The position numbers and the translations under genes are program-made. Source: Candidatus Poribacteria bacterium (GTDB taxonomy: Bacteria; Poribacteria; WGA-4E; WGA-3G). Taken from it: 64,000 nucleotides of DNA. The stretch covers positions 13,743 through 77,742 of the forward strand of contig JAPPBX010000017.1 in NCBI GenBank assembly GCA_026702755.1, given 5' to 3'. The notes under the pieces are model-generated. The model ran no database searches, was not told where the DNA came from, and saw only the letters and a list, made by a program, of their open reading frames with translations. This document shows, in pieces, positions 5,352 through 27,459 of the stretch. How positions within the stretch are numbered: the stretch's first letter is position 1; the number at the start of each line of letters is the position of its first letter.

Positions 5352-8300
5352 ATGAAAAACAACGATGCTCAACTCATCCAACGCGTGCTTGAAGGCGATG
5401 ATACTGCGTTCTCCGTGCTTGTGAGAAAATATCAGAAATCCGTTCACGCACTGGCGTGGCGGAAGATCGGGGATTTCCATATCGCCGAGGATATTACACA
5501 GGATACCTTCCTGCAAGCGTATCAAAAACTCTCAACACTGAGAAAACCGCAGCGTTTCGCGGGTTGGCTCTATGTGATAGCAGCGAACTACTGCAAAATG
5601 TGGCTGCGTCAGAAACGTTTATCAACCCAGTCGTTGGAAAACACAAGCAGCGCGCAATTAGAAAAAGCAACCTATTCTGGATATGTTATTGAGGAAAACG
5701 AGCGGACAACAGCAGAAGCACAGCGCGAGATCGTCAAAAAGTTGCTTGCGAAGTTACAAGAGAGCGAGCGTACAGTCATCACCCTTTACTACCTTGGGGG
5801 AATGAATTATGAACAGATAAGCGAGTTTCTGGGTATGTCGGTTAGCGCGATTAAGAGCCGACTCCACCGAGCAAGACAACGATTAAAGAAGGAGGAACCG
5901 ATGATTCGAGAGGCTTTAGGCAACTTCCAAATTACACCAAATCTATCAGAGAATATTATGCGGGAGATTTCGCGTATGAACCCAATTGCGCCATCTAGCA
6001 GTAAACCGTTGGTGCCGTGGGCAATCGGCGTTTCCACATTAGTCGTTGTCTTTTTGATGGTAGGCGTTGGCAGTCAATACCTGTCGCGTTTCCAGAAACC
6101 CTACAGTTTCGATGCGACTTCGGAGATGACAGTTGAACTCATTGAAGCACCTATCGTGCTGAGCCTTGAATCCAAACCTGATGTCCGGACGCAGCTCGGA
6201 AACGTCAATACGCCAAGTAAGAACAATGCCTCTCATCGACAGCCTAATAAGGAAAAGTCTGTGGTTCACGAAACCTTGAAAGATTTCCAACACTCAGACG
6301 ATCTCGTGGAGGACATCATGAAATGGACTCGGGTACGTGAACCGGGTATATTGGGCGAAGTAGGTACCCTGTCAGGGACTTCGGAAAATACGCTCTATAC
6401 CGTTATAGGCGACAGGAGTATCTATAAGCTGCCATCGGGTGAGGAGGCGTGGCAACTTGTCGATGACACCTTCCTATATCAAAACACCGGCGGTAATATA
6501 CCCATAGCAGAGCGGGATGGTACACTTTATATTATCTTATCCAATGAATTGTATGCTTCCACTGATGATGGCGAAACTTGGCACTTCGTCGGCACCTGCC
6601 CCCAAGGGTATGTTAGGGAATTGAGGGTTACAGAAGATGCGCTTTACCTTTGTCTCAGTGACGGTATCTTCCGATCCGATGACGCTGGAAATTCTTGGAA
6701 GGATATAAGCAATGGCTTAGATGATCGCTTGTCCGAACACTCAGGAATTCATTCGTTACAAATGAGTCAAGGCACGCTATTTGTGAAAACCGATCTCGGA
6801 CTCTATCGTCTTGAGGCGGACACTTGGCAACACTTACGATTACCAGTAGATGAAGCCGTGCATGTTGGTTCTTTAGCGATATATGAGGACGAAATTTATG
6901 TCATAGCATCAGTGAATATTTTGGATTTCTATGGGGCTCCGAAAGATATTTGGGAGCGATTGTGGAAAGGCGAGATGCGTTCGTGGTGGATTTTCCGATC
7001 AACCGATGGGGGTGACGCATGGAAAGACATAACACCCATGAACGCTTGGAATCTGACGGGCTTCCGTCCGGATATAACGTTGATTACGACACGGAATACA
7101 CTCTTGGCAATCGGGAATGATGACGGTATGGTAGCACGCTCGGTTGATAGTGGAGACACTTGGACATCTATAGCGTCTTCAGGGATTTCTCCCATACAGT
7201 TCAGTGTGCGATGCGCTGTAGCTTTAGATGGAAACACATTTTATACGGGTGGCAGCAGTGGGATTCACCGTTCAACTGATGGTGGTAAGACGTGGCACCG
7301 CTTTCATACCGGACTGGAAAGTCGTGTTGATAATTTAGTTAGTTTCGTGGCAGATCAGGCACCAGACAGGTCTGCAGCACTTTACGCCAGCGTGGGTAAA
7401 CATTTTGTCAAATCGAACGATGGCGGAACATCCTGGGAGGCTGTCAGCTTGGCAGTGAACCCCAGTGCCCGTTTATCCCAAAAGCAACAACCGGAAATTG
7501 TGCAGGTAGCAAAAACTAATGGGGTGCTCTATGCAAAAGGAATTCAAGAAATTTATGAGACTGCTATTTTTCAGTTGTCTTCCGATGGTAATACTCTCAT
7601 CCCCGTTACAGGAACACCCCCTTCTTTAAGTTCATCTGGACTGGTGCAAAAAGTACTGGCGGGCAAGCGTTTCACTTTCAGAGACGAAAGACGATCAGTG
7701 CCGGAACTTCGCGTTGGCTTTTCTGGTGTAGCTGATGCCTTATTGGATGATTTATCAAAGACCCCTGATTTTGGGGCAGACAGTTTCTTTGAAAGATTGG
7801 TAGAGAGGCAAATAGACCCTCGAGTGGTCTATGAGTTAATACGGGAAGGATTATGGGGTAACTTCGCAGTCAGCGATGAAACGTTCTACATGGAATACAA
7901 CTATAAACTCTTCCGATGGAAACCTGGTGACCCAGAATGGCACGACACCGGTTTGGAGGAGACCGGTGAACTCCGTCGCGAGACCTTGTGGAGAGGCTTT
8001 AAAATCGCTGCATCGGACGGAACCGTCTATGTCGGTAAGCGGGATGGACATCTCTTACAATCGCTTGATGGGGGAGACACTTGGAATGATGTCACACCAA
8101 ATCTGCCCTTCTCTATCGAGCATTTCAAAGAGATAGTCTTTGCAGATTCAACGGTCTGCGTCGCGACTGATAAAGGGGTTTTTTATTCAAAAGATGGCGT
8201 TGTCTGGAATGTCCTTGTCGATGAGACGGGAAAACCTGTTATCATCAAGTCGTTATCTACAATAGGGGATTCCGTTTACGGTGCCAACGATGAAGGCATC

Positions 8301-8447: not shown

Positions 8448-8629
8448 GCATATCCCTCATACATAAAAACATAACTGATCCGAAAAACTTAAAACTATGG
8501 TGAATTGTAAAAATAAGTTTACATTTCGTCGGGGACCCGGTAGGCAGGGTTTCCTGACTGGGTCAGTAGAAAAAATGTCTGCTTATTTTTGGGATTCACC
8601 ATAAATGACCCTAACGAGAGGAAAATAGA

Positions 8630-13687: not shown

Positions 13688-14743
13688 TTAACTTAGCGAA
13701 AAAACGCTCACCCCACCCGACTCGTCACCAACAGCAATATACTGGTCGTTCGGTGACCAAACGAGGCTTGTGACCCCCGCTGCCAGGGCGGCTTCATGAA
13801 CCGCCAGAGAACTCATTCTGCCTCGCAATTGCCAGACGTAGATCAGACCGTCAGCACCACCTGAGGCGAGCAGTTTTCCGCGATGTTGAAAACGCACAAC
13901 GCTGAGAAAATCCTGATGCCTGGAAAGCGTGATCGGGTTGGTCCCAGCCGGGCCGCGACCGGAACAATCCCACACCGTAACTTCCTGACTGCCTCCGGTA
14001 GCCAAGTATCGACTCGTGGCATCCCACGAGAGTTCTCGCACTTTCGTCGGATAGCCAGTCATTTGCAAGTCTTCACCGGTAGACATAATCCAGAAATGTA
14101 CGGTCGAATCTTGATCTCCGGTGGCGATGTGTTTGCCGTCAGGGCTCCACGCAATTACCAGTGATGAGCCTTTCCATTCCAATCGGCGGACGGCTTCCGA
14201 CTGTTGCGGGTCCCACAGCGTGACACCGCCGTAGGCAATCGAGGCAAGTTGTCTTACACGCGGTCTCCACTGGAGATCAGAAATCGTGCTCTGATGATCG
14301 GAATATTCGCGAACAAGATCGCCGACAGCGTTCCAGAGTTTCAGCTTACGCCCCGCGGCAGAGGCGAGTATCGGTTTCTTGCCGCCACTCCAAGATAGAT
14401 GCTCAACCCATGCAGCGCCCCCGTCAAGCGAATGGGTCGCTTCGCCACTCGCCATATCCCACAACCGAATTTTCCCATCTTGTCCTGCGCTTGCAAGCAC
14501 CTTGCTGTCTGGACGCCATGCGATTGACATTGTACCGAATTCATGCCCTTCAAAGGCATGGATAACCGTTCGACGACCACCTTCAAAAATTGTAACCGGA
14601 CCGAGAACCGACGCGGCAGCAATGTATCTCCCATCAGGGGACCACGCCAGATCAATGACGTGGTCGCTGATGGTTACGGTCCAATTTTCGCGCAGTTGAG
14701 AGGGCTGGAAAAAGCGGTTGCTCAGGTTGTTCAAGCGAGACAT
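13688..14743 (-). CDS. WD40-repeat beta-propeller protein
   Basis: Multiple WD-like blades (AWSPDGRYIAAASVLGPVTIFE; IAWRPDSKVLASAGQDGKIRLWD; AWSPDGKHIATGDQDSTVHFW; VWSPNDQYIAVGDESGGVSVFS). Its start overlaps the 3' end of the upstream COG0523 gene by 13 nt. Confidence 0.8.
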   Translation of the reverse strand: MSRLNNLSNRFFQPSQLRENWTVTISDHVIDLAWSPDGRYIAAASVLGPVTIFEGGRRTVIHAFEGHEFGTMSIAWRPDSKVLASAGQDGKIRLWDMASGEATHSLDGGAAWVEHLSWSGGKKPILASAAGRKLKLWNAVGDLVREYSDHQSTISDLQWRPRVRQLASIAYGGVTLWDPQQSEAVRRLEWKGSSLVIAWSPDGKHIATGDQDSTVHFWIMSTGEDLQMTGYPTKVRELSWDATSRYLATGGSQEVTVWDCSGRGPAGTNPITLSRHQDFLSVVRFQHRGKLLASGGADGLIYVWQLRGRMSSLAVHEAALAAGVTSLVWSPNDQYIAVGDESGGVSVFSLS

Positions 14744-16083
14744 GCTTCAAATCCTTCAGTCAATTCAGACCGGTCGAGGTTGCGCCCGATGAAGATAAGG
14801 CTATTGTAGCGCGGTTCACCACCCCACGGGCGGTCGGGGCGACCGTCGAAGAGCATATGAACCCCTTGGAAGACGAATCGTTCTGGCTGCCCCTTGATGC
14901 TCAGAATACCTTTCATGCGGAAGATGTCGGGACCTTTTGTCCGAAGCAGGTTGCCAATCCAATCGTTCAGCCGGTCAGGGTCGAGGTCGCCGGGGGTTGT
15001 GATGCCGACCGATGTGACTTCGTCATCATGTTCGTGGTCCGGCTTAAATTCGCGTTCAACAACTGGCTTGACAAGGGTACCGCTGCCAAAGAGTTGTGCT
15101 TGAAATTCGTCGGGGTGATGCTCGGTAAACAGCGCGTAAGCACCGGGGCGGCCGATCTGCACGTCAAAGCGTAATTCGTCCGCCGTGAGATTCAATGCAA
15201 TGAGGTGTCCACCCGGTTGAAGGGTGCCACCCGCCGAAAGTTCATGCTCATCATCGGAGAAAACCATAACGACTGGCTCAACAGCGGACTCCAAAGCTTC
15301 ATCGGTTGACGCACTTACGGGCACCAACGCGACTTTCATCGCCGGGTCAGGACCTTCTTGGAGAACCAGTTCATGCGTGCCTGCCGAAAGGTCATAAACA
15401 CCAGCCCATTCAAACGGATACTCCGGTTCCATAAACTGTGGGTCAATCTCCATCGCCCGGTCCAGATCGAATCCACCGACATTGAGAATCTTGTCCATTT
15501 CAACCACGGCGTCTTTCGTTCGATAAATCTTCGCTGCAGCGTTCATGCTGCGAATTCTGGCTTCCAGTTGCTCTAACTCTCCCTCGGTCACAAGGTCAAT
15601 CTTGTTCAACAAAATGACATCGGCAAAGGCAATCTGTTCACGCGCCTCGTCGCTGTCATCGATGTGCTGCCAGATGTGTTTGGCATCAACCAGTGTCGTG
15701 ACGGAATCCAGTTGCAGTTTCTCCTGCATTTCGGTGTCCATAAAGAACGTCTGAGCAACTGGCCCGGGGTCCGCAAGTCCTGTGGTTTCGACCATGATGT
15801 AGTCAAACTTATCGCGACGCTTCATCAGATTCCCCAAAATACGGATGAGATCACCGCGCACCGTGCAGCAAATGCAACCATTGTTCATCTCGAAAATCTC
15901 TTCTTCGGCACCGATGACCAAATCATTATCGACACCGATCTCGCCAAACTCGTTTTCGATGACGGCGATACGTTTGCCATGGTTTTCGGTGAGAATGCGG
16001 TTGAGAAGCGTGGTTTTACCAGATCCCAAAAAGCCCGTCAACACGGTGACAGGAACTTGATTGTTTAGCATGGCTGTGTTCAT
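14731..16083 (-). CDS. COG0523-family (CobW/ZigA/YciC-like) metallochaperone GTPase
   Basis: Walker A VLTGFLGSGKTTLL. Metal-binding GCICCTVRGDL (CxCC) motif. ETTGLADPGPV switch region. C-terminal CobW_C-like region. AAGGAGAG RBS. Confidence 0.85.
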   Translation of the reverse strand: MNTAMLNNQVPVTVLTGFLGSGKTTLLNRILTENHGKRIAVIENEFGEIGVDNDLVIGAEEEIFEMNNGCICCTVRGDLIRILGNLMKRRDKFDYIMVETTGLADPGPVAQTFFMDTEMQEKLQLDSVTTLVDAKHIWQHIDDSDEAREQIAFADVILLNKIDLVTEGELEQLEARIRSMNAAAKIYRTKDAVVEMDKILNVGGFDLDRAMEIDPQFMEPEYPFEWAGVYDLSAGTHELVLQEGPDPAMKVALVPVSASTDEALESAVEPVVMVFSDDEHELSAGGTLQPGGHLIALNLTADELRFDVQIGRPGAYALFTEHHPDEFQAQLFGSGTLVKPVVEREFKPDHEHDDEVTSVGITTPGDLDPDRLNDWIGNLLRTKGPDIFRMKGILSIKGQPERFVFQGVHMLFDGRPDRPWGGEPRYNSLIFIGRNLDRSELTEGFEACLA

Positions 16084-16102
16084 CTTTCTCTCCTTGTAGA
16101 AT

Positions 16103-16363
16103 TTAGTCAGCGGTCAAGCTAACGATGTCCGTCTGATCCACCTCCGCCAGCGGTTTGTGAATCTTGTATTGCCGGGGCTTTCCCGGCGTCTCCATGATTG
16201 CAATGACCGTTTCAATAGGCGGGCAGCCCTCTTCGGTGCATTGCAACTGAGTAATCATCACAGAAATATCTTCTGATAGGTCAAAGACTTCGGAGACCCA
16301 CGATTTGACTTGGACGAGTTGCTGTGGGTCACTCTCTTTTTGCGAATTAAAAAAATTCAGCAC
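16103..16363 (-). CDS. Small hypothetical protein (86 aa) with a CTEEGC motif, first gene of the COG0523 operon
   Basis: The ORF sits 19 nt upstream of the COG0523 gene on the same strand. I recognise no family. Confidence 0.35.
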   Translation of the reverse strand: MLNFFNSQKESDPQQLVQVKSWVSEVFDLSEDISVMITQLQCTEEGCPPIETVIAIMETPGKPRQYKIHKPLAEVDQTDIVSLTAD

Positions 16364-16483
16364 TATTGTATGTCCTCCTTTAAACCGTCTGTCATCAGGC
16401 TCGTATCAATGTAGCAACGTTGTACGACAGGAACCTGCCTGGCGAACGCTTGCCACTGTGAAGCCTTGTAACTCACGGTTTGC

Positions 16484-16921
16484 TTATTTTTTCTCAAACC
16501 CGAACGAGGGTGATCGAAACCGATCAAAACGGTGACTATCAAAGGCTGAAGGCAACGGAAGTAGTGCATCTGCTCGTGCCACGGCTTCCGCCCAATCTAC
16601 GAGTCGCGCATAGTGTAGATGGAGATCTATCCGTCCTAACCACACGACACCGTGCGGTGAGGTGATACAGATGACATTTGCGAGATCGCACGGACCGAGA
16701 CAGCCTTCGCTGATTGTCAATGTTATTGAAGCCGACAGCCGCTTGTTCCGCCACTCCTTGATGAGCCACTCGACGGGGACAGGCGGTTTTCGTTTCTCTG
16801 TCACGCCACAACAACAACCCTTACAAACCAGTATATGCACTAAGACACGCCGCTTTGATGCGAGTTTGGGCGACGATTCGATTCTATTTGCTCTCATACC
16901 TTTTTCCTGCATACTGTTCAA
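16484..16921 (-). CDS. Thioredoxin-like [2Fe-2S] ferredoxin-fold protein (DUF1636-like), a family often adjacent to cobW/COG0523 genes
   Basis: Cys cluster VHILVCKGCCCG ... EGCLGPCDLANV. Size about 130-145 aa. The true start may be an internal Met. Confidence 0.5.
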   Translation of the reverse strand: MNSMQEKGMRANRIESSPKLASKRRVLVHILVCKGCCCGVTEKRKPPVPVEWLIKEWRNKRLSASITLTISEGCLGPCDLANVICITSPHGVVWLGRIDLHLHYARLVDWAEAVARADALLPLPSAFDSHRFDRFRSPSFGFEKK

Positions 16922-16975
16922 ATCTCCGCTTGGCGTTGCTGATGATATTCCTCTATTATCTGAACTTGATGTTTA

Positions 16976-17569
16976 TCAATCGCTTCCACGCTGTGAAGGC
17001 AAGTATTCGACGAGTTCATACCACTTTGCAGCCATCTCGTGTGCAGGAATAGGTTTCTTCTTCCATGCATCAGTACACCGTTGGCGATAGTCAAGTCCGT
17101 ATTCAGAAATAATCCACCGCTCGTAGTCGCCTATCCATGCGATACCTTGAGTGAGCAAGCTGAAAACGCGACGCCACGCTTCCACATCACATGGATGCGT
17201 AAGCTCAGGGAGTTGCTCCGGTTTCCATATAGGCAACGAAAAATCGACCGCTGCTGTCTGTTTGGGCGCGAATTTGTAACGCTGCAAGAAAAGCCCTCCT
17301 CGGCCCCCATCGCCATAGAAAAACCCGAATCCCCATAAAATAACTCGGCTTCTGCCAGAGTCACGCCACTCATAAGCGGTACTTCCGTGCTTGCCTTCCG
17401 GCGGTCGATGTTTGGTAAAACCGTAGGCGAGCAAAGCATTTTCCTCTGCCCGGCGAATATCCTGTCCCCAACACCACAACTGTTGGTCCAACAGCGTCGT
17501 CCCGATCTTCCTGACCTTGTTCAATGCACCTGACCAAAGCGCTGATTCGTCGTCAGTTCTGTCAGACAT
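16976..17569 (-). CDS. Hypothetical protein (197 aa)
   Basis: Long ORF with no recognisable motifs. It is co-oriented with the neighbouring zinc-related genes. Confidence 0.35.
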   Translation of the reverse strand: MSDRTDDESALWSGALNKVRKIGTTLLDQQLWCWGQDIRRAEENALLAYGFTKHRPPEGKHGSTAYEWRDSGRSRVILWGFGFFYGDGGRGGLFLQRYKFAPKQTAAVDFSLPIWKPEQLPELTHPCDVEAWRRVFSLLTQGIAWIGDYERWIISEYGLDYRQRCTDAWKKKPIPAHEMAAKWYELVEYLPSQRGSD

Positions 17570-17611
17570 GACTTATTCCCCCATAAGAAGCCGCTTCTAC
17601 CTCTTCTCAAG

Positions 17612-17800
17612 GTCACTAAGCAATTCAAAAGCGGTGTCAAGAACTGTCGGTTTCTTTGCACTATTTCTTAACATGAGCCACTTTTCCTCTGTGTTACACA
17701 CGATTCATCACTACCCTATGACATTCAAGGGTAGTGATGAATCTTATCGGCACTTATTTCAAAATAACCATCCGCTTCATCTGATGGAAAGACGGCGTGG
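17612..17800. repeat. Copy 1 of a ~180-bp conserved 3'-end element containing a 13-bp perfect inverted repeat (ttcatcactaccc ... gggtagtgatgaa)
   Basis: It is near-identical to 21817..21990 (aaggtcac[tg]aagcaattcaaaagcggtgtcaagaact.tcggtttctttgcactatttcttaacatgagcc ... ttcatcactaccc-loop-gggtagtgatgaatcttatcggcactta.ttcaaaataaccatccgctt). It overlaps the last codons of the 1078-aa gene. Confidence 0.6.
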
Positions 17801-20800: not shown

Positions 20801-20927
20801 CAAGTAACCGACCCAGCGGCTCAGCATGCTCATCATCATACTCTTGTGCGATGGCTTGCATTGAGAGGATCGAACAAGACATCAAAAACATAAGCAGAGC
20901 CAGGGTGGCTCTCATGCAAGTAACCAT
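17754..20927 (-). CDS. Large secreted surface protein: N-terminal beta-propeller-like region (possibly AztD-like zinc chaperone fold), central HAF-family repeats, and a T9SS-type C-terminal sorting domain
   Basis: The ORF is open from 20990 (TTG). The likely start is the Met right after the conserved leader element (MVTCMRATLALLMFLMSCSILSMQAIA signal peptide). HAF-like repeats (FGINNAGDIVG, AFGINASGQITG, GWGINDLGQLT, FRGINNAGVMAG, AQAINDDGVIVG). C-terminal VLQNYPNPFNPETWIPYHL...VTLSIYDTTGRLVRTL...WDGRNDVGERVSSGVYFYRL is typical of TIGR04183/FlgD-Ig-like CTDs. Confidence 0.7.
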   Translation of the reverse strand: MVTCMRATLALLMFLMSCSILSMQAIAQEYDDEHAEPLGRLLVADGETGLLQLIELDNGEVIETFMVEGSARVYTTESGRIAVAVQAGANRVNFIDSGLYLEAHGDHFDKEKGRPSLLPFNLTGELANSQRPIHFVSHDGRVNIHFDGNFGEGVDSKNVTVREEDLFLPNPDTLILTSAPQHGAGAPVHGGKIIFSLPDPDREFGSLPSGFAVVDEHGNIVQTFNDKEDFQASCLGMHGETIVGEHFIAGCNEKREDGTGDGGVFVMTHDPVTGLFSAHKIAYPDGLRTSIVRSHHAQPFAIGNYGSRPDPGYKALVRIHPTSTELDPNDIQQLPTDYRGFDFDKKHGDRLAVLTVDGLLQVFNPSDWTLLGSTQVVADFSGADGLRPALTVGSGFAYVSNPNTGEILEVDLDTVSVSRTFSVEGQPVNMTALDWVAPLGPAPSHDADHSHESVADLSTDGIHLTIGVPYHIEVVDIPFAGASETELFGINNAGDIVGSYADANAVRKGFWLKNGVFETIAPEGATDTRAFGINASGQITGRYKDADGVQHGFLREPDGMFITVNPGAADNFGWGINDLGQLTSYHFDFPTENDIVITSFLREPDGTFGQVPSSGGVGGNVFRGINNAGVMAGWNLPESGFTPTEFIDGLIYEDGEFTTLSINAERHTLPDDIDNHGRIVGHTAPLDFSEVQGFLRTPEGEFHLFGIPGAETTVAQAINDDGVIVGWFEIHSEDGEEQTHGFIATPMPTDGDDFSQVYYASLSKGLNMISSPLKPRTPMNARSLAEMVGATTVIKLDDVNQKFVGWTPDAPDNGFPIEGAKGYIVNVPHARQVAFVGAPWTNQPQVPAAPIARSIDTPSSTWAFVVSGQLEGVQNLEGYLVTVRNLRTNAIMTNRVRDGYFAAATADLSYQSVVQVGDTLEVTVADATGEIASEKLSFVVTPEALANAVLPITLKGIGVPKQSLVLQNYPNPFNPETWIPYHLSESAPVTLSIYDTTGRLVRTLSLGFKPAGFYQGRSRAAYWDGRNDVGERVSSGVYFYRLSTPSFHQMKRMVILK

Positions 20928-21000
20928 AAATCGTGAAATAGCGACAGAAAAGTCGCGCTGAAAAAAATACGTAAACAATGTATTCTCCAATTTTTTTATC
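20928..21000 (-). promoter_or_regulatory. Conserved 5'-UTR element (copy A) that abuts the start codon and contains the GCGAC-N6-GTCGC stem-loop
   Basis: mRNA sense is aaaaaaattggagaataca.tgtttac.tatttttttc.g.gcgacttttctgtcgctatttc.cgatt.ATG. It is shared almost base-for-base with 26254..26330. Confidence 0.55.
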
Positions 21001-21335
21001 TAATTAGGGCTTACGCAGATCGCTCTTTTGTAGCATAAACTCTCTAACGAAGCGTCATAGACTCAAAATTGCGTAAGTCCTGCTAAATGAAATTACACTT
21101 AACGGCGAACATGCCACGCGAAACATATAAAACGCGTGTTGACATGTAGCCAGTAACGGATGCTTTGCGTAATAGATGTGCTTATGGACATCCCGAAAGC
21201 CGACCACGCATGGGTCCACAATCAGATAGCGTCTACTACAGAGCAAAGCAGCGGTGTACAAAGCGCGGGGCGCGTCATAGGTAACCCCGCGATCTTCGTA
21301 CAATCAAGGATATAAAGGAAAAACAAAATCTGCCT

Positions 21336-21707
21336 TTAAAAGGCATAATTTGCGAGTTCAGTGGAGAATACAGGTGGGGCACGACTTCGGGTGTGGATGA
21401 CCAGTTTTAGAGGGATAGAAGTGTCTTCATAAAGTCGGAGTTCAGTATGAAAAAAGAAAGGTGCGTTGAGAGCAAAAGGTTCAACCTCGAAACTGACGTG
21501 CTGGCTGCAAAAGAAGCAGGCTGCACAGGTATTCTCGCGCTGCGAGTGTTCGCTAGGGCAATGCTGGCAATGCGAATGTTCGCTATGATCGTGTGTCAGT
21601 TCGATGAGACCCAGCAGCGCGACGTAGCAACATAAACCTGCTAAAACACAGATTTTCAAACTACGCCTAAATATTAACTTGTTGGGAAAAGTCGTACCGT
21701 TTCTCAT
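21336..21707 (-). CDS. Small membrane-anchored His/Cys-rich protein (copy A)
   Basis: MRNGTTFPNKLIFRRSLKICVLAGLCCYVALLGLIELTHDHSEHSHCQHCPSEHSQRENTCAACFFCSQHV. There is a paralog at 26873..27220 with many synonymous codon differences over the first ~50 codons (GGT/GGC, CCC/CCA, TGC/TGT, TAC/TAT, CAC/CAT), which argues for a real coding gene under purifying selection. A consensus promoter lies 45-50 nt upstream. Confidence 0.6.
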   Translation of the reverse strand: MRNGTTFPNKLIFRRSLKICVLAGLCCYVALLGLIELTHDHSEHSHCQHCPSEHSQRENTCAACFFCSQHVSFEVEPFALNAPFFFHTELRLYEDTSIPLKLVIHTRSRAPPVFSTELANYAF

Positions 21708-21783
21708 ACACCAGAACCTATGGTTATGATTAAAAAAAATGAATGCGAATAAACTTGACGTAAATTATAGCACGCGATTGTGT

Positions 21784-21812
21784 CAATGTCAAATAGAACT
21801 TAAAAAGTTGAT
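21784..21812 (-). promoter_or_regulatory. Perfect-consensus sigma-70 promoter (TTGACA-17-TATAAT) reading toward the small His/Cys ORF and leader A
   Basis: The minus strand reads tTTGACAttgacacaatcgcgtgcTATAATtta. The -35 hexamer is duplicated in tandem (TTGACATTGACA). Confidence 0.6.
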
Positions 21813-21816
21813 AAGG

Positions 21817-21990
21817 TCACGAAGCAATTCAAAAGCGGTGTCAAGAACTCTCGGTTTCTTTGCACTATTTCTTAACATGAGCCGTTACACTCCTGCGAAT
21901 ATACAGATTCATCACTACCCAATGACCTTCAAGGGTAGTGATGAATCTTATCGGCACTTACTTCAAAATAACCATCCGCTTGAACGGTTT
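21817..21990. repeat. Copy 2 of the ~180-bp conserved 3'-end element with a 13-bp hairpin (ttcatcactaccc aatgaccttca agggtagtgatgaa)
   Basis: See 17612..17800. It lies immediately 3' of the ZnuA-like gene (minus strand) and its last bases overlap that gene's stop. Confidence 0.6.
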
Positions 21991-22954
21991 ATAACTCCGA
22001 TTTCCCAATCAAAGCATGGACAATCGTATCAATATTATGTCGGATCATCCCGATGTAGGTACCTTCAGGAGTTCCCTCGTTTCCCATAGCATCTGTGAAG
22101 AGCACACCACCGATCTTCACATCAAATCCTTTTGACTTCACAGCGGCTTTCACGGCTTCGAGACTCCGTGGAGAGACGGATGACTCTACAAAAATAGCAG
22201 AGATACGCCGGTCCGCAATAAACGTCGCCAATTCCTGTACATCAGCGATACCGACTTCTGTCGCAGTGCTAACACCTTGTAATCCGCGCACCTCAAACCC
22301 GTACCCCTTTCCGAAGTAGTTAAAACAGTCGTGCGCCGTCACAAGGACGCGTTGCTGAGATGGCACGCGTTCCACTTGCGACTTTACGTATGCGTCGAGT
22401 TCCATGAGTTTCGTGAGGTAGCGTTCAGCATTGCTTCGGTATAGGACAGTATTATCCGGATCGAATTCACTCAGGGCATCGCGAACCTTTCCCGCCGCTA
22501 GCATCCAAAGTTTCACGTCAAACCATAGGTGCGGATCGTAGAGTCCCTCGTATTCTGCGGGTGTTAGCAGTAGACTCCGATCTACGGCATCTGTTACGGC
22601 GACCGTCAGCGTGTCCTCCGACATCTTCGCAAGGATGTCCACCATTTTTGCTTCAAGGTGCAGCCCGTTATAGAAGATGATGTGTGCTGAACTCAGTTTT
22701 TGAACATCTTTAGGTGTCAGGTTGTAAAAGTGTGGGTCTACGCCAGGTTCCACTATCCCGGTCACCTCAACGCGCGTACCGCCAACATTTTTAACAATAT
22801 CAGTAATCATACCGATCGTGGCAACAACGCGAAGTTTGTCGCCTGTGGCAGCACCCGGTTGTCCCTTCGGATCACAGCCAGCCCATACCAATATACCTAT
22901 CAAACACACTGAAATGTATATTCTCTGCATAATTTTATGCATTTTCTGCCTCAC
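21989..22954 (-). CDS. znuA: Periplasmic metal (Zn/Mn)-binding lipoprotein of an ABC uptake system, ZnuA/TroA family
   Basis: Lipoprotein signal (...LIGILVWAGC). TroA-fold signatures (LRVVATIGMITDIVKNVGG, VDPHFYNLTPKDV, DPHLWFDV, VTAHDCFNYFGKGYGFE). No znuB or znuC gene is adjacent. Confidence 0.75.
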   Translation of the reverse strand: MRQKMHKIMQRIYISVCLIGILVWAGCDPKGQPGAATGDKLRVVATIGMITDIVKNVGGTRVEVTGIVEPGVDPHFYNLTPKDVQKLSSAHIIFYNGLHLEAKMVDILAKMSEDTLTVAVTDAVDRSLLLTPAEYEGLYDPHLWFDVKLWMLAAGKVRDALSEFDPDNTVLYRSNAERYLTKLMELDAYVKSQVERVPSQQRVLVTAHDCFNYFGKGYGFEVRGLQGVSTATEVGIADVQELATFIADRRISAIFVESSVSPRSLEAVKAAVKSKGFDVKIGGVLFTDAMGNEGTPEGTYIGMIRHNIDTIVHALIGKSEL

Positions 22955-23408
22955 ATGTTAAACAGGTCTTACAGAGGTGCCGATTCACGAGATGCGCGGA
23001 GGCGATTAAAACGCCGCCGATACTGTAGAAGACCACTTCAAAAGTGCCTTCAACGGCTATCTGAGCGGTAGCGATGAATGCTAACGCCGCTATCAGTACC
23101 AAAAACGCTCGCCAGTTTCGGTGGCGTCGAACACCCCACGCTAAACTCCCGATTGCCAGTCCAATTGCGCTCGCAATAAGGATAAACTCAACACGCTCAT
23201 TCGCAAGGAAACTCAACCCAATCAAAGGTAAAACTGTTCCTAAAAGCGGCATCGCGAGGCAGTGGATCGCGCATGCGAAAGGGAGACACGCCGCGCACGC
23301 GACAGAGAGACACGCGCCAGTTGTATTCGCCAATTCGTGGTTAAAATATCTTTTCAATTTTATCTCCTTAGAAAATCGAGAACGGCGGGCGATGATAGAA
23401 ATCATCAT
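22935..23408 (-). CDS. MerC-family inner-membrane metal transport protein
   Basis: TM1 Cys motif GACLSVACAACLPFACAIHCLA (compare MerC GCAACFPALA). LIGLSFLANE. C-terminal CKTCLTCE. Four predicted TM helices. Confidence 0.55.
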   Translation of the reverse strand: MMISIIARRSRFSKEIKLKRYFNHELANTTGACLSVACAACLPFACAIHCLAMPLLGTVLPLIGLSFLANERVEFILIASAIGLAIGSLAWGVRRHRNWRAFLVLIAALAFIATAQIAVEGTFEVVFYSIGGVLIASAHLVNRHLCKTCLTCEAENA

Positions 23409-23423
23409 CCCCGTCCTACAATT

Positions 23424-25703
23424 TTAAAAATTAAGTTTATACAAGAGTTTCGCATTCCGTCCTGGTTCCGGCATCGCCGATTTGATGCGGGACAGATGTT
23501 CGCGATACGTTGTATCAAAGAGGTTTTCAATCTCGAAAACGACCATGTTCTCAAGCTGCCACCACGAAAAATTGAGATAGCTCCCGATATCATAGACGAG
23601 ATAGCCGTCTGTCGGTTCCTCAAATTCACCGAGTCGGGTCTGGCTGCCTGAAAAACGGGACGCGACATACAAATGCAACGGGGCAGGCGTGTAACTGATG
23701 ACGAATTTACCGTTGAGGGGTGGGACACGCTCCAGCGGTCGCCCATTGCTTTGAATCGTTCCGTTGACGTAACTCATATTGAGCTGAAGATGGACTTGCG
23801 GCAGGACCTCACTCCCTATTTGGATTTCAGCCCCATCCATCACAACGTCGTGTCCCATGTATTGATAAATCCACAACCATCCTGCTGCGCCGCTGCCCCA
23901 CTCTTTTTCACCGCTGTTCATCGGAACGAGATAGTTCTGTATCTGATTCCTGAAAAGCGCAAGATTGAGTCTGAATCTGTCGTCTGCGTATTTGACGAAG
24001 AGTTCAGTGCCGTATCCGTTTTCGGGTCCCAGTTCTGAATTGCCGATTTCGTAGGAATAGACAGCCAAGTGCGGACCATCGCTGAAAAGCTCCTCGATCC
24101 CCGGTGCGCGAAACGTTTTCATCAGGGTAGCCCCGGTACTTAGCCTATCCGTCCAATGATAAATTCCAGAGGCAGCCCCTGAGAAACCGTTGAAATCGCG
24201 GCGTTGGACGGCTCCGGCTCGGACAACTGCCCCAGGTCTAAACGGTTCCGAACGTCTAATGTCGTAGCGGATAGCCCCTTGTAAGGTGAGTTTGTCGAAG
24301 TTACGCTGGTTTAGATAAAATCCCGCCAACGCGAGCTCACGGGTGTGAGGAGTCCAGTAAAATCCGTCTGTGGCGTGGTCTCGGTATTCCCACGAAACAC
24401 CTGCAATCGCGTTGTCTAATAGATGCGCCATCGCTGAGACGTTGTAGGTTAACAGACCGAATTCGACACCAAGTCTCCCGTTGGATTCCCATTCCTGATG
24501 CTGATAACGCGTATAGGCAGTCTGGAGTTTTACCTTTTCAAGTATTGCTGTATTGAAGCGGTACTCCATCTGTCCTTCATAACGTTGCTTGTCGAGTTCG
24601 ATGTTGACCCCGCTAATATGTCCTTCTGGTGAGCCGGGAACGCCGTAATCTGAACGATAACTGCTTCCCGAGGCACCGATGAAACCCCACGGCTTAATCA
24701 GCGAAGCACCGCCTGAAAAATTAACATTTGAAAGGGCAGTGTTTTTGAGTACACCTACCGGCGTTTGTATGTCAGATGCAAGCCGCCGATTCCATTCTAT
24801 ATTTCCCGCAAAATCACCAATTGGGAACGTAAAACCTGTCGTTCCGGTCAAACCTGAGTTGACAGATTCACCTTGGAACGTTAGATGCATATCCAGCCGT
24901 CTCGGTAGAATTTGCGGTATGTGATTGCTTTTGACATTGATGACACCGCCCAACGTACTTGAGCCGTAAATGAGCGATGCGGGACCCCGCGTAATTTCAA
25001 CACCTTCAGCGATCGTCGGATCAATCGATACGGCATGGTCGGCACTGGATGCCGATTTATCGCCCGTTCGCTCGCCGTTTTCGAGAATAAGCAGCCTGTC
25101 ACCGCCCAATCCACGAATAACGGGACGCGCAATCGCCCGTCCCATCGTTCGTTGTGAAATGCCCGTCTCATCTGCCAATGTGTTCGCCAAGGTCATCCCT
25201 AACCGTCTTTGGAGTTCCGCTTCACCCAATGCTAAGTCGGTTGTTTCCTCAAACTGTGAAAGAGAGCGATTTGAACCGTATACCCTGATGGTTTGCAGTT
25301 GAAACGGCAACGTCTCCAGTTCAATTTTGAGATAAGGCGTGGAGGCATTGACATCAATTACCTGTTCAAACCGCTGATAACCGACCTTCAGAAACTGGAG
25401 CGTCTGTTGTCCTTCCGGCACTGCGTCAAATTTAAACCGACCGTTTGCATCGGTCCGGACGCTTCCCTCAAGTCCCGCAATCTGGACTCTCACTCCACCA
25501 AGTCGAGCATGCGTCCGTACTTCCGTAACTTCTCCTTCCAAGGATCGCATTGGGTTCTGTGCACTTTGGGAATCCCTGAGATAGCAAAATAGGCATACTA
25601 TTATCCCAGACACCAACACGAGTAGGTAGGGACGCTTTCTAAGAATCCCTACCGTGGGAGATCTATGCGGACAGGCACAAGTGCTTGAACAAGTGCTTAA
25701 CAT
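23424..25703 (-). CDS. TonB-dependent outer-membrane receptor with an N-terminal carboxypeptidase-regulatory-like domain (ZnuD-like role inferred from context)
   Basis: CarbopepD_reg-like segment (GEVTEVRTHARLGGVRVQIAGLEGSVRTDANGRFKFDAVPEGQQTL). Plug (ITRGPASLIYGSSTLGGVINV). Long beta-barrel. C-terminal aromatic residue (...LLYKLNF). Confidence 0.8.
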   Translation of the reverse strand: MLSTCSSTCACPHRSPTVGILRKRPYLLVLVSGIIVCLFCYLRDSQSAQNPMRSLEGEVTEVRTHARLGGVRVQIAGLEGSVRTDANGRFKFDAVPEGQQTLQFLKVGYQRFEQVIDVNASTPYLKIELETLPFQLQTIRVYGSNRSLSQFEETTDLALGEAELQRRLGMTLANTLADETGISQRTMGRAIARPVIRGLGGDRLLILENGERTGDKSASSADHAVSIDPTIAEGVEITRGPASLIYGSSTLGGVINVKSNHIPQILPRRLDMHLTFQGESVNSGLTGTTGFTFPIGDFAGNIEWNRRLASDIQTPVGVLKNTALSNVNFSGGASLIKPWGFIGASGSSYRSDYGVPGSPEGHISGVNIELDKQRYEGQMEYRFNTAILEKVKLQTAYTRYQHQEWESNGRLGVEFGLLTYNVSAMAHLLDNAIAGVSWEYRDHATDGFYWTPHTRELALAGFYLNQRNFDKLTLQGAIRYDIRRSEPFRPGAVVRAGAVQRRDFNGFSGAASGIYHWTDRLSTGATLMKTFRAPGIEELFSDGPHLAVYSYEIGNSELGPENGYGTELFVKYADDRFRLNLALFRNQIQNYLVPMNSGEKEWGSGAAGWLWIYQYMGHDVVMDGAEIQIGSEVLPQVHLQLNMSYVNGTIQSNGRPLERVPPLNGKFVISYTPAPLHLYVASRFSGSQTRLGEFEEPTDGYLVYDIGSYLNFSWWQLENMVVFEIENLFDTTYREHLSRIKSAMPEPGRNAKLLYKLNF

Positions 25704-25713
25704 GGGAGTCCCC

Positions 25714-26253
25714 TTATTGAACAGTTACCGGTATGAGAAGTGCTCCCGTGAAGTCTGGATGGTCCCCGTGAAGGAGTTGAAGTTTGATGCTCGTTTCGCC
25801 TGCCTTCAATCCCTCGAGTCCAAATCCTAATTCTTCACCATGTTCTTCTTCACCATGTTCTTCTTCACCGTGTTCGTGTTCATCTTCATGTTCCAGATGA
25901 ATCTCAATAATAGCGGAATCGTACTCCGACAAGCCCAAGTTGAAGACTTCCTCATGTCCATGCTCATCCACTGCCTCTACTTCATCGAGATGGACTTCCG
26001 CTTCGTTCGCGTCAATAAATACAACATGGACCTCAATCTCTTCACCAACGCCAACGGTGAGACCGCCTTCATGGGCACCTTGATGTTGATGATAGACCAC
26101 TTCTCCATTAACTTCCAGGTTAAAGCCGTCGGCATCGGCATGCATGGGGGCATCCGTTTCGTGGTCGTGGTCATGGTCATCTTCAACAATAGGGTTGTCA
26201 CTTTCGCCACAACCTCCCATGAGGGGAAGTACGGTGACAAAAGTTAGTAACAT
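25714..26253 (-). CDS. His/Asp/Glu-rich periplasmic lipoprotein (putative low-affinity zinc-binding protein)
   Basis: The likely start is the Met right after the conserved leader element (MLLTFVTVLPLMGGCG, lipobox LMGGC). His-rich tracts (EDDHDHDHETDAPMHADADG, HLEHEDEHEHGEEEHGEEEHGEE, LLHGDHPDF). The ORF as printed continues upstream to 26385 by translating the conserved leader. Confidence 0.65.
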   Translation of the reverse strand: MLLTFVTVLPLMGGCGESDNPIVEDDHDHDHETDAPMHADADGFNLEVNGEVVYHQHQGAHEGGLTVGVGEEIEVHVVFIDANEAEVHLDEVEAVDEHGHEEVFNLGLSEYDSAIIEIHLEHEDEHEHGEEEHGEEEHGEELGFGLEGLKAGETSIKLQLLHGDHPDFTGALLIPVTVQ

Positions 26254-26330
26254 TAATCGAGAAATAGCGACAGAAAAGTCGCACCGAAAAAAATAGGTAA
26301 ACATTTGTATTCTCCAATTTTTTTTAAACT
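26254..26330 (-). promoter_or_regulatory. Conserved 5'-UTR element (copy B) that abuts the start codon and contains the GCGAC-N6-GTCGC stem-loop
   Basis: Plus strand reads cgagaaatagcgacagaaaagtcgcaccgaaaaaaataggtaaacatttgtattctccaattttttt. Compare 20941-21000 gaaatagcgacagaaaagtcgcgctgaaaaaaatacgtaaacaatgtattctccaattttttt. Confidence 0.55.
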
Positions 26331-26872
26331 TTTTTAATCTGATGGTACACAGTATGTGCCCATTGCTTCTAAAATGGAATTGCACTTAACAACGAAAATG
26401 CCACGCGAAAGATATAAAACGCGCGGTGACATGCCGCGAGTATCTCATGCTTTGTTAAAATAATAGATGTACCTATAGACTTCCTAAAAGCGTACCATTC
26501 ATTGATACACAATTAGGTAGCATCTACTATAACCCAAGTTGCTACTAACAAATTTTGGTGTTTGTGCTTGGGTATTTCTGTGTGTTTCAACACCACTTTT
26601 CAAGTATTTCCTCACCCCAGATGAAGTTTAATAAAATATTTGGGTAATTCTATGTTCTCCAGACCCGGTAGGTGCGGTTTCCCAACCGCACCGGGCATCG
26701 GTAAAAATTACCCGATTAAATTCTTAATCTTCATGAGAGGCGATATATCTATAGAATATAGAAGAACACCACAATATGTTGCAAAGCAGAGATGTACAAA
26801 GCGCGGGACGCGTAAATAAGGACCCGCAATCTTTGGACAATAAGAGATATAAAGGAAAAACAAAATCTGCCT

Positions 26873-27220
26873 TTAAATGGCATAATTTGCGAGTTCAGTG
26901 GAAGGTATAGGCGGGGCACGACTCCAAGCGGTCGTGGTAAATCTTAAAGGAAGAAAAACGATTTCATACAGCGGAAGCGTCGTACTTGGAAGAAACGGAG
27001 AGGTGAGTACTACCACCTCAATTTCCTCTCCGACGTGTTGGCTGTTGTAGACACAGGCTGTACAAGTTTCCTCAGAATGCGCGTGTTCACAATGATCGTG
27101 ATCATGCGTGAGTGCTATGACACTCAGCAACGCAACATAACAAAATAAACCTATTAAAATGCCGGTTTTCAAACTACGCCTAAAGACAAGCGTGTTTGGA
27201 AAAGCGATGCCGTTTCTCAT
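26873..27220 (-). CDS. Small membrane-anchored His/Cys-rich protein (copy B)
   Basis: MRNGIAFPNTLVFRRSLKTGILIGLFCYVALLSVIALTHDHDHCEHAHSEETCTACVYNSQHV. See the paralog at 21336..21707. Confidence 0.6.
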   Translation of the reverse strand: MRNGIAFPNTLVFRRSLKTGILIGLFCYVALLSVIALTHDHDHCEHAHSEETCTACVYNSQHVGEEIEVVVLTSPFLPSTTLPLYEIVFLPLRFTTTAWSRAPPIPSTELANYAI

Positions 27221-27273
27221 AACCTATGCCTGTGTTATTATCAAAGCTCAGATTGCCAACAAACTTGCGATAT

Positions 27274-27302
27274 ATTATATCATACGATTATGTCAATGTC
27301 AA
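27274..27302 (-). promoter_or_regulatory. Perfect-consensus sigma-70 promoter (TTGACA-17-TATAAT) for the small His/Cys ORF and leader B
   Basis: The minus strand reads tTTGACAttgacataatcgtatgaTATAATatatcgc. The -10 is embedded in the palindrome GATATA-A-TATATC. Confidence 0.6.
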
Positions 27303-27459
27303 ATAAAAGTGGAAATCATACCAGAACCATTTAGTTTTCTTGTAGGAGGGATCCCCGAATTCCGACTGCTGACACCCTCTCAGAAAAGATAGGCTTGCAC
27401 TTATCGGCGCGATGCTTTATCATATTCACCATGAGATTACCCAAAGGAGACATAATTAG

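Follow-up and report, generated by a model that had tools for sequence, protein, structure and literature searches.

Putative metal-sensing leader-peptide switches of the CruR/CutF (DUF2946) kind in Candidatus Poribacteria

Two copies of a leader cassette

We analyzed a 64-kb window (the whole stretch of DNA studied, from contig JAPPBX010000017.1) of a Candidatus Poribacteria genome. Two transcription units, here termed A and B, lie on its minus strand, and each has a consensus promoter, a small gene for a His/Cys-rich protein, a long spacer and the cargo (Table 1). Repeat finding and pairwise alignment revealed two minus-strand copies, 20900-21900 and 26220-27400, with about 75% identity. The duplicated segment comprises the promoter, the small gene, the spacer and the start region, and copy B differs from copy A by an insertion of about 250 nt. 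The duplication noticed in a preliminary description of this DNA is therefore real, while the five-part layout which that description gave to both units proved only partly right.

Cargo B had been described as genes for a His-rich lipoprotein, a TonB-dependent receptor, a MerC-like protein and a ZnuA-family protein, and family scans bore this out; the lipoprotein itself matched no Pfam or NCBIfam family. In unit A, 17 duplicated N-terminal codons are fused in frame to a surface protein with a type IX secretion system (T9SS) sorting tail.

The small proteins carry the hallmarks of CruR and CutF

The two small genes had been described as coding for membrane-anchored His/Cys-rich proteins of 115-123 aa. 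They are real conserved genes. A large protein collection holds 117 homologues, of which the named ones all come from Candidatus Poribacteria. Protein A consists of a membrane anchor, HDHSEHSHCQHC, CAAC (CxxC, residues 61-64), RAPP at residues 109-112 and an 11-residue tail. Protein B has a basic N-terminus, a membrane anchor, HDHDHCEH, CTAC (CxxC) and SRAPP plus 11 residues; it reads AWSRAPP against the usual NTRSRAPP.

Conservation was read from an alignment of 43 homologues (A2). The N-terminus, MRNG..FRRSLK followed by a hydrophobic stretch of 19-20 residues as read from the sequence, is conserved and would form an N-in/C-out membrane segment or export signal. H39 is invariant, and D40, H41 and H44 are nearly so (HDH..H motif). 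C61 and C64 of the CxxC motif are invariant, and H70 is nearly invariant. R109-A-P-P112 is invariant as well, and RAPP occurs in 115 of the 117 homologues; the tail behind it has 10-11 residues in 93 of the 117. Counted from the invariant CxxC, the distance to RAPP is 44-45 residues, with a single case of 46. At the nucleotide level, the last 150 nt of the gene show an excess of C over G of 0.14 in 68/69 units; over the first 150 nt, as over the spacer, this excess is about zero.

Comparable features are known from CruR (Bp2923) of Bordetella pertussis, a DUF2946 upstream open reading frame (ORF) of bp2923-bfrG-bp2921 (Roy et al. 2022, PMC9426467). In CruR, the CxxC motif senses copper, and ribosome arrest is brought about by the C-terminal RAPP. 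Between these motifs lie 45 +/- 1-2 residues, RAPP lies three residues from the end, the rut site is a C>G bubble within the 3' half of the ORF, and a long spacer (162 nt) precedes the gene for a TonB-dependent receptor (PMC9426467). PF11162 (DUF2946) matched 32 of the 43 aligned members at E<=1 (best 1.3e-6) and is precomputed on three homologues of the small protein. An exhaustive profile search of 1.84 billion representatives returned only 34 relatives at E<=0.001, so the Poribacteria proteins are a small, divergent branch of the DUF2946 family; in the distant relatives, membrane anchor, HxH, CxxC and SRAPP are arranged in the same way.

Judged by their sequences, the small proteins are divergent DUF2946 (CruR/CutF-like) proteins, each of which probably stalls its own ribosome at Arg-Ala-Pro-Pro. 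The preliminary description had offered a leader-peptide mechanism as one of several options, in a regulatory logic that it did not recognize. The anchor, the CxxC motif, the spacing of about 45 residues, RAPP, the C>G bubble and the operon position, which together make up every sequence hallmark of CruR/CutF, support that option, and the same logic was published for CruR in 2022.

A genome scan found 59 loci, in Poribacteria only (locus handles L001 and so on are used below). All 59 keep the layout in which the small gene heads an operon and is followed by a spacer of 194-576 nt and then by the receptor, as part of a lipoprotein-receptor-MerC-ZnuA cargo. The duplication had been considered recent and without regulatory meaning should relatives lack further conserved copies; the copies are there.

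Bases after RAPP are complementary to the cargo Shine-Dalgarno sequence

The nucleotides that directly follow the RAPP codons have the consensus GTATTCTCCAA and are at least 90% conserved. This consensus is the exact reverse complement of the near-invariant ribosome-binding site (RBS) region of the cargo, TTGGAGAATAC. The complementary stretch, termed anti-SD below, spans 10-13 nt, and the Shine-Dalgarno sequence (SD) of the cargo lies 200-570 nt downstream of it.

We scored duplexes between the SD region and every 16-nt window of the upstream transcript in 55 units (about 500-880 windows each). The post-RAPP window was the best SD partner in 50/55 units, with a median of -14.8 kcal/mol. The best other window had a median of -9.6 kcal/mol, and just 0.03% of the other windows reached -13. 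When the RNA was folded from the RAPP codons to the cargo start, the helix was in the minimum-energy fold of 51/55 units. Unit A keeps a perfect 10-bp gate, which closes a multi-branched spacer in both the minimum-free-energy (MFE) and centroid folds (-135.3 kcal/mol, z = -5.4). In unit B the anti-SD is decayed and the pairing lost, and in the closest relative, L018 (88% identical), the pairing is also weakened (-8.9 kcal/mol).

Ten more distant loci were fetched from metagenomes for an assessment of covariation. The helix is found in six of them (weakly in L072), and four show compensatory changes: GTATCCTCC/GGAGGATAC in L070, TTCCTCCATC/GATGGAGGAA in L069, GTCCTCTG/CGGAGGAC in L062 and GTATTCTCCG/CGGAGGATAT in L060. 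For a formal count, 26 core and eight distant sequences were compared in one fixed register, with the negatives kept in. Both sides had changed in seven pairs, against 4.3 +/- 1.0 in shuffles (5/500 shuffles reach 7). Further pair types numbered 19 against 14.2 (0/500 shuffles), and the covariation score was 0.192 against 0.141 (0/500). Eight A-type units serve as a natural control: their T9SS cargo is deleted and the anti-SD is kept, and with the next gene it reaches only -3.6 to -8.8 kcal/mol. An RNA structure that would mask the RBS of the next gene, as in the CutF-type gate, is present as a predicted helix in most units, though not in unit B.

In the distant locus L069, a sensor homologue (754-1245) has an intact, compensated anti-SD:SD pair of -18.6 kcal/mol, and the cargo is a different one, a protein of >446 aa with no family match. 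This suggests that the cassette has been reused for other cargo.

The start region of the cargo is coding

An element of about 70 nt had been reported to run up to the cargo start codon. The shared element is real; it consists, however, of GGAGAATACA, an ATG or TTG start codon and 17 conserved cargo codons, and the true cargo start lies 17 codons upstream of the Met first assumed. The start codon follows GGAGAATACA at variable spacing and is ATG in B-type units and TTG in the five A-type units with T9SS cargo. The conserved start codons MFTYFFGRDFSVAISRLM run in frame into the lipoprotein signal peptide and lipobox.

Cargo codons 19-33 show a classical coding pattern, with entropies of 0.52/0.13/1.25 at positions 1/2/3, and codons 1-18 give 0.41/0.36/0.63. 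Codons 1-18 are coding, with an extra constraint at the nucleotide level. A reading of the element as a non-coding RNA was rejected, as the SD-ATG spacing varies, the lipobox frame is kept and variation falls mainly on third positions.

We also noted that synonymous variation is reduced across codons 1-18, and that a small hairpin, GCGACttttctGTCGC, lies within codons 8-13 (20941-20956 and 26267-26282). By eye, some relatives carry apparent compensatory variants of it (GCGGC..GCCGC, ACGAC..GTCGT).

The spacer has fixed ends and a variable middle

Up to the conserved start, spacer A is 358 nt long and spacer B 568 nt, not the 450-550 nt estimated before. The spacer takes insertions and is unalignable in divergent genomes; both its ends are fixed. 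Local hairpins (T1 and H2 to H4) are listed in Table 1. The CACGCG..CGCGTG and GCCTTTTAAAGGC blocks named in the preliminary description do exist in the leaders.

A hairpin with a U-rich tail at the stop codon of the small gene (T1) was found in 38/69 units (55%), against a background of 2.6% at random positions. Two versions with unrelated arms exist, TGCCTT/AAGGCA and CAGATTTTGCT/GGCAAAATCTG, and each places the stop codon in its loop. Compensatory change in H2 is modest (38 double-change cells vs 18.9 +/- 5). The arms of H4 covary among B-type units, and H4 is absent from A-type units.

Searches for a known or consensus RNA fold gave nothing firm. Rfam 15 had no match in the window at gathering thresholds and only chance-level matches at E<=10. 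An alignment of whole spacers from 56 units ran to 1852 gappy columns and was unusable. RNAalifold returned a weak consensus of -6.4 kcal/mol on a 25-sequence subset and none on alignment A3.

The insertion in spacer B holds a palindromic unit of the type GGTNCGGTT..AACCGNACCTACC, present once in the window. Similar palindromes in the spacers of L008, L033 and L042 suggest a small mobile or repetitive-extragenic-palindrome (REP)-like element.

Table 1 Features of the two units and their surroundings, in the direction of transcription
Feature	Position	Strand	Sequence, basis or remark
Promoter B	27274..27302	minus	TTGACA TTGACA .. TGATATAAT; perfect -35/17/-10, extended -10
Small gene B, 115 aa	26873..27220	minus	Homologues and alignment
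RAPP codons of B	26909..26920	minus	Predicted arrest site; motif invariant in alignment A2
Anti-SD position of B	26898..26908	minus	Decayed, ATACCTTCCAC; 5 bp, -5.0 kcal/mol, rank 147
T1 of B	26854..26882	minus	Hairpin TGCCAttTAAaGGCA, stop codon in loop, then GATTTTGTTTTTCC
H2 of B	26793..26839	minus	Long hairpin TGTCCAAAG..GCGGG..CCCGC..CTTTGTACA
Insertion in spacer B	26530..26780	minus	Lineage-specific; palindromic hairpin at 26664-26695
H3 of B	26402..26425	minus	Hairpin CGCGCG-TTTTATATCTTT-CGCGTG
H4 of B	26344..26361	minus	Hairpin GGGCACAtacTGTGTACC before A-rich tract and SD
RBS and start of cargo B	26302..26317	minus	TTGGAGAATACAA ATG
His-rich lipoprotein, 196 aa	25714..26304	minus	MFTYFFRCDFSVAISRLM.. 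LMGGC lipobox; sequence
TonB-dependent receptor with CarboxypepD_reg N-domain	23424..25703	minus	Family scans
MerC-family membrane protein	22935..23408	minus	Family scan
ZnuA-family substrate-binding protein	21989..22954	minus	Family scans
Junction block, copy 1	21813..21981	minus	T9SS-tail remnant, 15-bp hairpin (21906-21947), upstream region of 197-aa ORF
Promoter A	21764..21792	minus	TTGACA TTGACA .. TGCTATAAT
Small gene A, 123 aa	21336..21707	minus	Homologues and alignment
RAPP codons of A	21372..21383	minus	CGT GCC CCA CCT; predicted arrest site
Anti-SD of A	21361..21371	minus	GTATTCTCCAC, directly 3' of RAPP codons
T1 of A	21317..21345	minus	TGCCTTttaAAGGCA, stop codon in loop, and GATTTTGTTTTTCC
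H2 of A	21255..21302	minus	TGTACGAAG-AT-CGCGGGG..CCCCGCG-CTTTGTACA
H3 of A	21115..21138	minus	CACGCG-TTTTATATGTTT-CGCGTG
RBS and start of cargo A	20976..20990	minus	TTGGAGAATACA TTG; pairs with 21361-21371, MFE and centroid
Cargo A, surface protein of ~1075 aa	17754..20978	minus	FlgD_ig / T9SS sorting tail; family scans
Junction block, copy 2	17609..17777	minus	T9SS gene end, hairpin 17702-17743, region upstream of ORF 16976-17569
Conserved genes downstream of unit A	13688..17569	minus	197-aa, 145-aa Cys-rich and 86-aa ORFs, COG0523, WD40
197-aa ORF	16976-17569	minus
145-aa ORF	16484-16921	minus	Cys-rich, CKGCCCG .. CLGPC
86-aa ORF	16103-16363	minus
COG0523 GTPase	14731-16083	minus	Family scan
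WD40 protein	13688-14743	minus	Family scan

Promoters and a possible operator

Perfect TTGACA-17-TATAAT promoters had been claimed for both units. They were found as described, both with a TG extension, and are the sole two such sites in the window; the consensus ATTTGACATTG..AAT..TGnTATAAT is kept in 63 units. The second TTGACA, earlier taken as a duplicated -35 hexamer, is present in both window promoters and is not conserved among relatives. From the -10 element to the ATG we measured 53-56 nt, compared with the roughly 45 nt given for this gap. No strong internal promoter was found in the spacer, where the best candidate has only 9/12 matches, at chance level. Sigma-54 and -10 candidates picked by eye near the hairpin before the SD did not hold.

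Conservation around the window promoters and 63 related ones extends well beyond the hexamers (TTGNCACAAT .. ATWTATCGCAAGTTTATTGGCA). By eye, some loci carry matching inverted arms across the promoter, such as TTGCCGTAA..TTACGGCAA in L021. The conserved flanks could be an operator for some regulator. No defined Zur box matches at the promoters, which show a partial palindrome over the -10 element and the conserved flanks. Approximate sequences of E. coli Fur and B. subtilis Zur, used as tblastn queries, gave no match below E=1 in the 64-kb window.

Zinc as the likely ligand

The zinc-uptake context proposed in the preliminary description remains plausible, judging by the families that the cargo matches best. 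The best NCBIfam match of the receptor is ZnuD (1.5e-51, vs 3.4e-15 for the copper receptor family), that of the binding protein is AztC (1.2e-63), and that of the COG0523 GTPase is ZigA/YeiR-like, all three below the curated cut-offs. Together with the mixed His/Cys site, these matches favor zinc as the ligand that the nascent sensor would bind.

Proposed mechanism

We propose for each unit a leader-peptide switch of the CruR/CutF (DUF2946) kind that acts in cis and senses a metal, a reading to which we assign a probability of about 0.6. The consensus sigma-70 promoter would drive the gene of a small exported sensor, and the ribosome translating this sensor would arrest at RAPP. By the general footprint of ribosomes, roughly positions +7 to +13 lie inside the mRNA channel. 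The arrested ribosome would hold the next 7-10 nt, which are the anti-SD, within this channel, so that the helix is blocked, the cargo RBS stays free and the cargo is translated. On release, the ribosome would run to the stop codon 33 nt further on and leave; the anti-SD would then pair with the SD and shut cargo translation. The untranslated C-rich RNA may then also be open to Rho as in CruR, which would add a transcriptional layer. Between the two arms the spacer is predicted to fold into local hairpins, so that the long-range helix closes the whole spacer. As the cargo looks like an uptake system, the expected polarity is that of CruR: zinc bound by the nascent His/Cys site would release the arrest and turn uptake off.

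Such a gate would account for the invariant ends of the spacer around a middle that varies, accepts insertions and defies alignment in divergent genomes. It would also account for the conservation of the bases after RAPP, although they are untranslated at the moment of arrest, and for the inclusion of the SD and the first codons in the duplicated cassette of unit A. The cassette, comprising the promoter, the sensor gene, the spacer, the SD and the first 17 codons, has been copied in this genome, and its second copy, with the gate intact, stands before the gene of a T9SS surface protein.

Several points weigh against this reading. Arrest, metal response and helix alike are predicted. The helix is missing from unit B, which is the actual uptake operon of the window, and the SD of that unit is unpaired in the centroid fold. 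Within Poribacteria alone no covariation was seen, the arms being nearly invariant; the covariation signal depends on a handful of distant loci, and four of the ten have no helix. The synonymous conservation of the anti-SD codons is strong, yet not unique within the gene. The window proteins themselves fall below Pfam significance, with no match at E<=1 for A and none at E<=0.01 for B. The ligand could be copper or another metal, because the characterized DUF2946 members sense copper, and the family matches that point to zinc all stay under their curated cut-offs. The stop-codon hairpin would form while a ribosome is arrested upstream, and this polarity is not a neat fit to the gate.

Alternative explanations

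A purely CruR-type attenuation, in which the arrested ribosome shields a C-rich rut site, its release leads to Rho termination in the spacer and the SD complementarity is idle, would draw on the C>G bubble in the 3' half of the small gene (68/69 units) and on the long spacer and TonB-dependent receptor cargo, as in bp2923-bfrG. It leaves unexplained the 10-13-nt complementarity, its top rank in 50/55 units and the compensatory changes in distant loci, and we regard it as rather unlikely to be the whole story. Rho attenuation and the anti-SD gate are, moreover, compatible mechanisms and do not exclude each other. The hairpin and U tail at the stop codon, with their two unrelated arm versions and their 38/69 units against 2.6% background, speak for an intrinsic terminator of opposite polarity. 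There, metal would strengthen the arrest, as in CutF, and the hairpin would terminate transcription unless it is melted by a ribosome that reaches the stop codon, upon which RNA polymerase would continue. The common version of this hairpin is a weak stem of 5-6 bp, however, its covariation counts are modest, and its sign would be opposite to that of the anti-SD gate. We consider this explanation improbable.

Control might instead lie at the promoter, through Zur/Fur-type repression, with the small protein as a membrane-anchored metal-binding part of the uptake system and the spacer mostly filler. The gene content is typical of Zur regulons, and the -35 and -10 flanks are conserved, including TGATATAATATATCG-like partial palindromes over the -10 element. 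The palindrome is not conserved, though (unit A has GCTATAATTTACG), the window holds no recognizable Zur box or Fur-family gene, and neither an invariant RAPP at a fixed distance from CxxC nor the SD complementarity would be expected of a structural protein. Used on its own, such repression appears highly improbable to us; it may operate alongside a leader-peptide switch. A riboswitch or other structured spacer RNA that senses the metal directly, which the preliminary description had also entertained, is unsupported and in our opinion scarcely credible. The spacers do fold more stably than shuffles (z = -5.4 and -4.5), and their conserved hairpins show some compensatory changes. Against it stand the missing Rfam match at gathering or relaxed thresholds, the missing RNAalifold consensus fold, and a spacer of 194-576 nt that takes insertions and cannot be aligned between divergent genomes while its ends are fixed.

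Comparison with known systems

The leader-peptide switch proposed here shares with CruR the CxxC motif, the C-terminal RAPP about 45 residues from it, the C-rich and G-poor 3' half, the long spacer and the TonB-dependent receptor cargo. The expected polarity is also the same, with the cargo on during arrest and the metal releasing the arrest. It differs in its host (Poribacteria rather than Proteobacteria), in an extra invariant HDH..H motif, in the position of RAPP (10-11 residues before the stop codon vs three), in the spacer length (194-576 nt vs 162 nt) and in the cargo, which is zinc-uptake-like rather than for copper. The predicted anti-SD:SD helix and the terminator-like hairpin at the stop codon have not been described for CruR.

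CutF, encoded in cutFOG of Rhodobacter capsulatus, is an exported sensor whose stalling opens a stem-loop that hides the next RBS, and its authors suggest that His-containing clusters may sense other metals (Ozturk et al., 10.1101/2022.11.11.516240, 10.1101/2025.02.05.636593). Common to both systems, on the present predictions, are a co-translationally exported DUF2946-like sensor, a C-terminal proline stalling motif and an RNA structure over the next RBS. CutF, however, has a local stem-loop and a short spacer, its stalling is promoted by metal, and its cargo is an oxidase for detoxification. The masking helix predicted here extends over the whole 200-570-nt spacer, with its 5' arm inside the sensor ORF directly behind the stall site, and the cargo looks like an uptake system.

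SecM-secA, MifM-yidC2, VemP and the RAPP arrest peptides ApdA/ApdP/ApcA (PMC7897499, PMC10951233, PMC12992588) likewise involve an exported nascent chain that is arrested, exposure of the SD of the downstream gene, and release of the arrest by force on the nascent chain. Unlike the present switch, these monitor secretion or insertion machinery instead of metal, and their masking structures are local. Proteomes avoid RAPP, except at the C-terminal ends of small exported proteins encoded ahead of diverse genes, where it is enriched. With the Zur-regulated znuA, znuD and COG0523 operons the locus shares a TonB-dependent receptor, a ZnuA-family binding protein and a COG0523 GTPase. It differs from them in that neither a Zur box nor a Zur gene was identified here, and control appears to be post-transcriptional, behind a consensus promoter.

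Metal-sensing arrest peptides (CruR, CutF) were described in 2022-2025, and the tested cases are all copper sensors in Proteobacteria. The present locus adds a divergent family branch, found ahead of zinc-uptake-like genes in an uncultivated phylum associated with sponges. As the kind of switch was published in 2022, what is new here is the RNA gate, the phylum and probably the metal. The gate makes a testable RNA mechanism, in which the anti-SD lies exactly where the arrested ribosome would stand and would pair across a long, variable spacer. It also gives a search rule for such switches, namely post-RAPP bases complementary to the SD of the next gene.

According to the authors of the CruR study, riboswitches for copper or zinc have not been described (PMC9426467), and we know of no post-transcriptional zinc sensor. 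It is conceivable, and we offer it only tentatively, that the locus encodes the first zinc-responsive nascent-chain sensor, built on a RAPP-arrested exported leader peptide and a long-range helix, with the cassette as a portable module. If so, a Cys2/His-rich site would read zinc while the chain is still attached to the ribosome and control an RBS up to 570 nt away, and the cassette would have been copied before unrelated cargo, to which the T9SS surface protein in the window and the different cargo of L069 point.

Neighboring genes and history of the region

Synteny mapping gave a canonical order of MatE, rhodanese, <hydrolases, <MoeA and then the small gene. The operon follows as small gene -> His-rich lipoprotein -> receptor -> MerC -> ZnuA -> (197-aa ORF), and the distal part as [second small gene -> (T9SS protein)] -> (145-aa ORF) -> 86-aa ORF -> COG0523 -> WD40. 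In the window too, the gene divergent from promoter B is MoeA by family scan. The A-type small gene, which has 78-85% identity to window A and about 55% to B, occurs as a second small gene only in L001-L012 and the window, and the T9SS protein follows it only in four of these loci and in the window. From this distribution and the synteny we conclude that the architecture is ancient and phylum-wide and that the tandem second unit is an older, clade-specific duplication of the regulatory cassette.

A conserved 3' element of about 180 bp had been assigned to each unit. Its two copies (the junction blocks of Table 1) are 96-97% identical. In relatives, the 197-aa ORF is located between ZnuA and small gene A, and in loci with a deleted T9SS gene the hairpin block is also found ahead of the 145-aa ORF. 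Because of that position of the 197-aa ORF, the element is a rearrangement junction and no part of the unit; its composition and the gene order of relatives led us to reject it as a unit terminator. Remnants of the T9SS sorting tail with the 15-bp hairpin were also seen after ZnuA and after small gene A in genomes without the T9SS gene, at L002 (about 6900-7100 and 8450-8560), L007 and L057. This indicates that the T9SS gene has repeatedly been duplicated and deleted in this region.

The COG0523 gene had been placed just upstream; in the direction of transcription it follows unit A instead. The 197-, 145- and 86-aa ORFs matched no family in the Pfam and NCBIfam scans, and neither did the two small proteins of the window. 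The DUF1636 label first given to the Cys-rich 145-aa ORF could not be confirmed, with no Pfam or NCBIfam match at E<=0.01. The 86-aa ORF stands directly upstream of COG0523 in almost every Poribacteria locus, with 83-99% identity. The gene for the WD40 beta-propeller shares 13 nt with the end of the one for the COG0523 GTPase (13688-16083), and the two are retained in nearly all loci with 86-96% identity; they may be a chaperone-partner pair. Within the His-rich lipoprotein gene, a 15-nt tandem repeat at 25831-25890 codes for HGEEE units.

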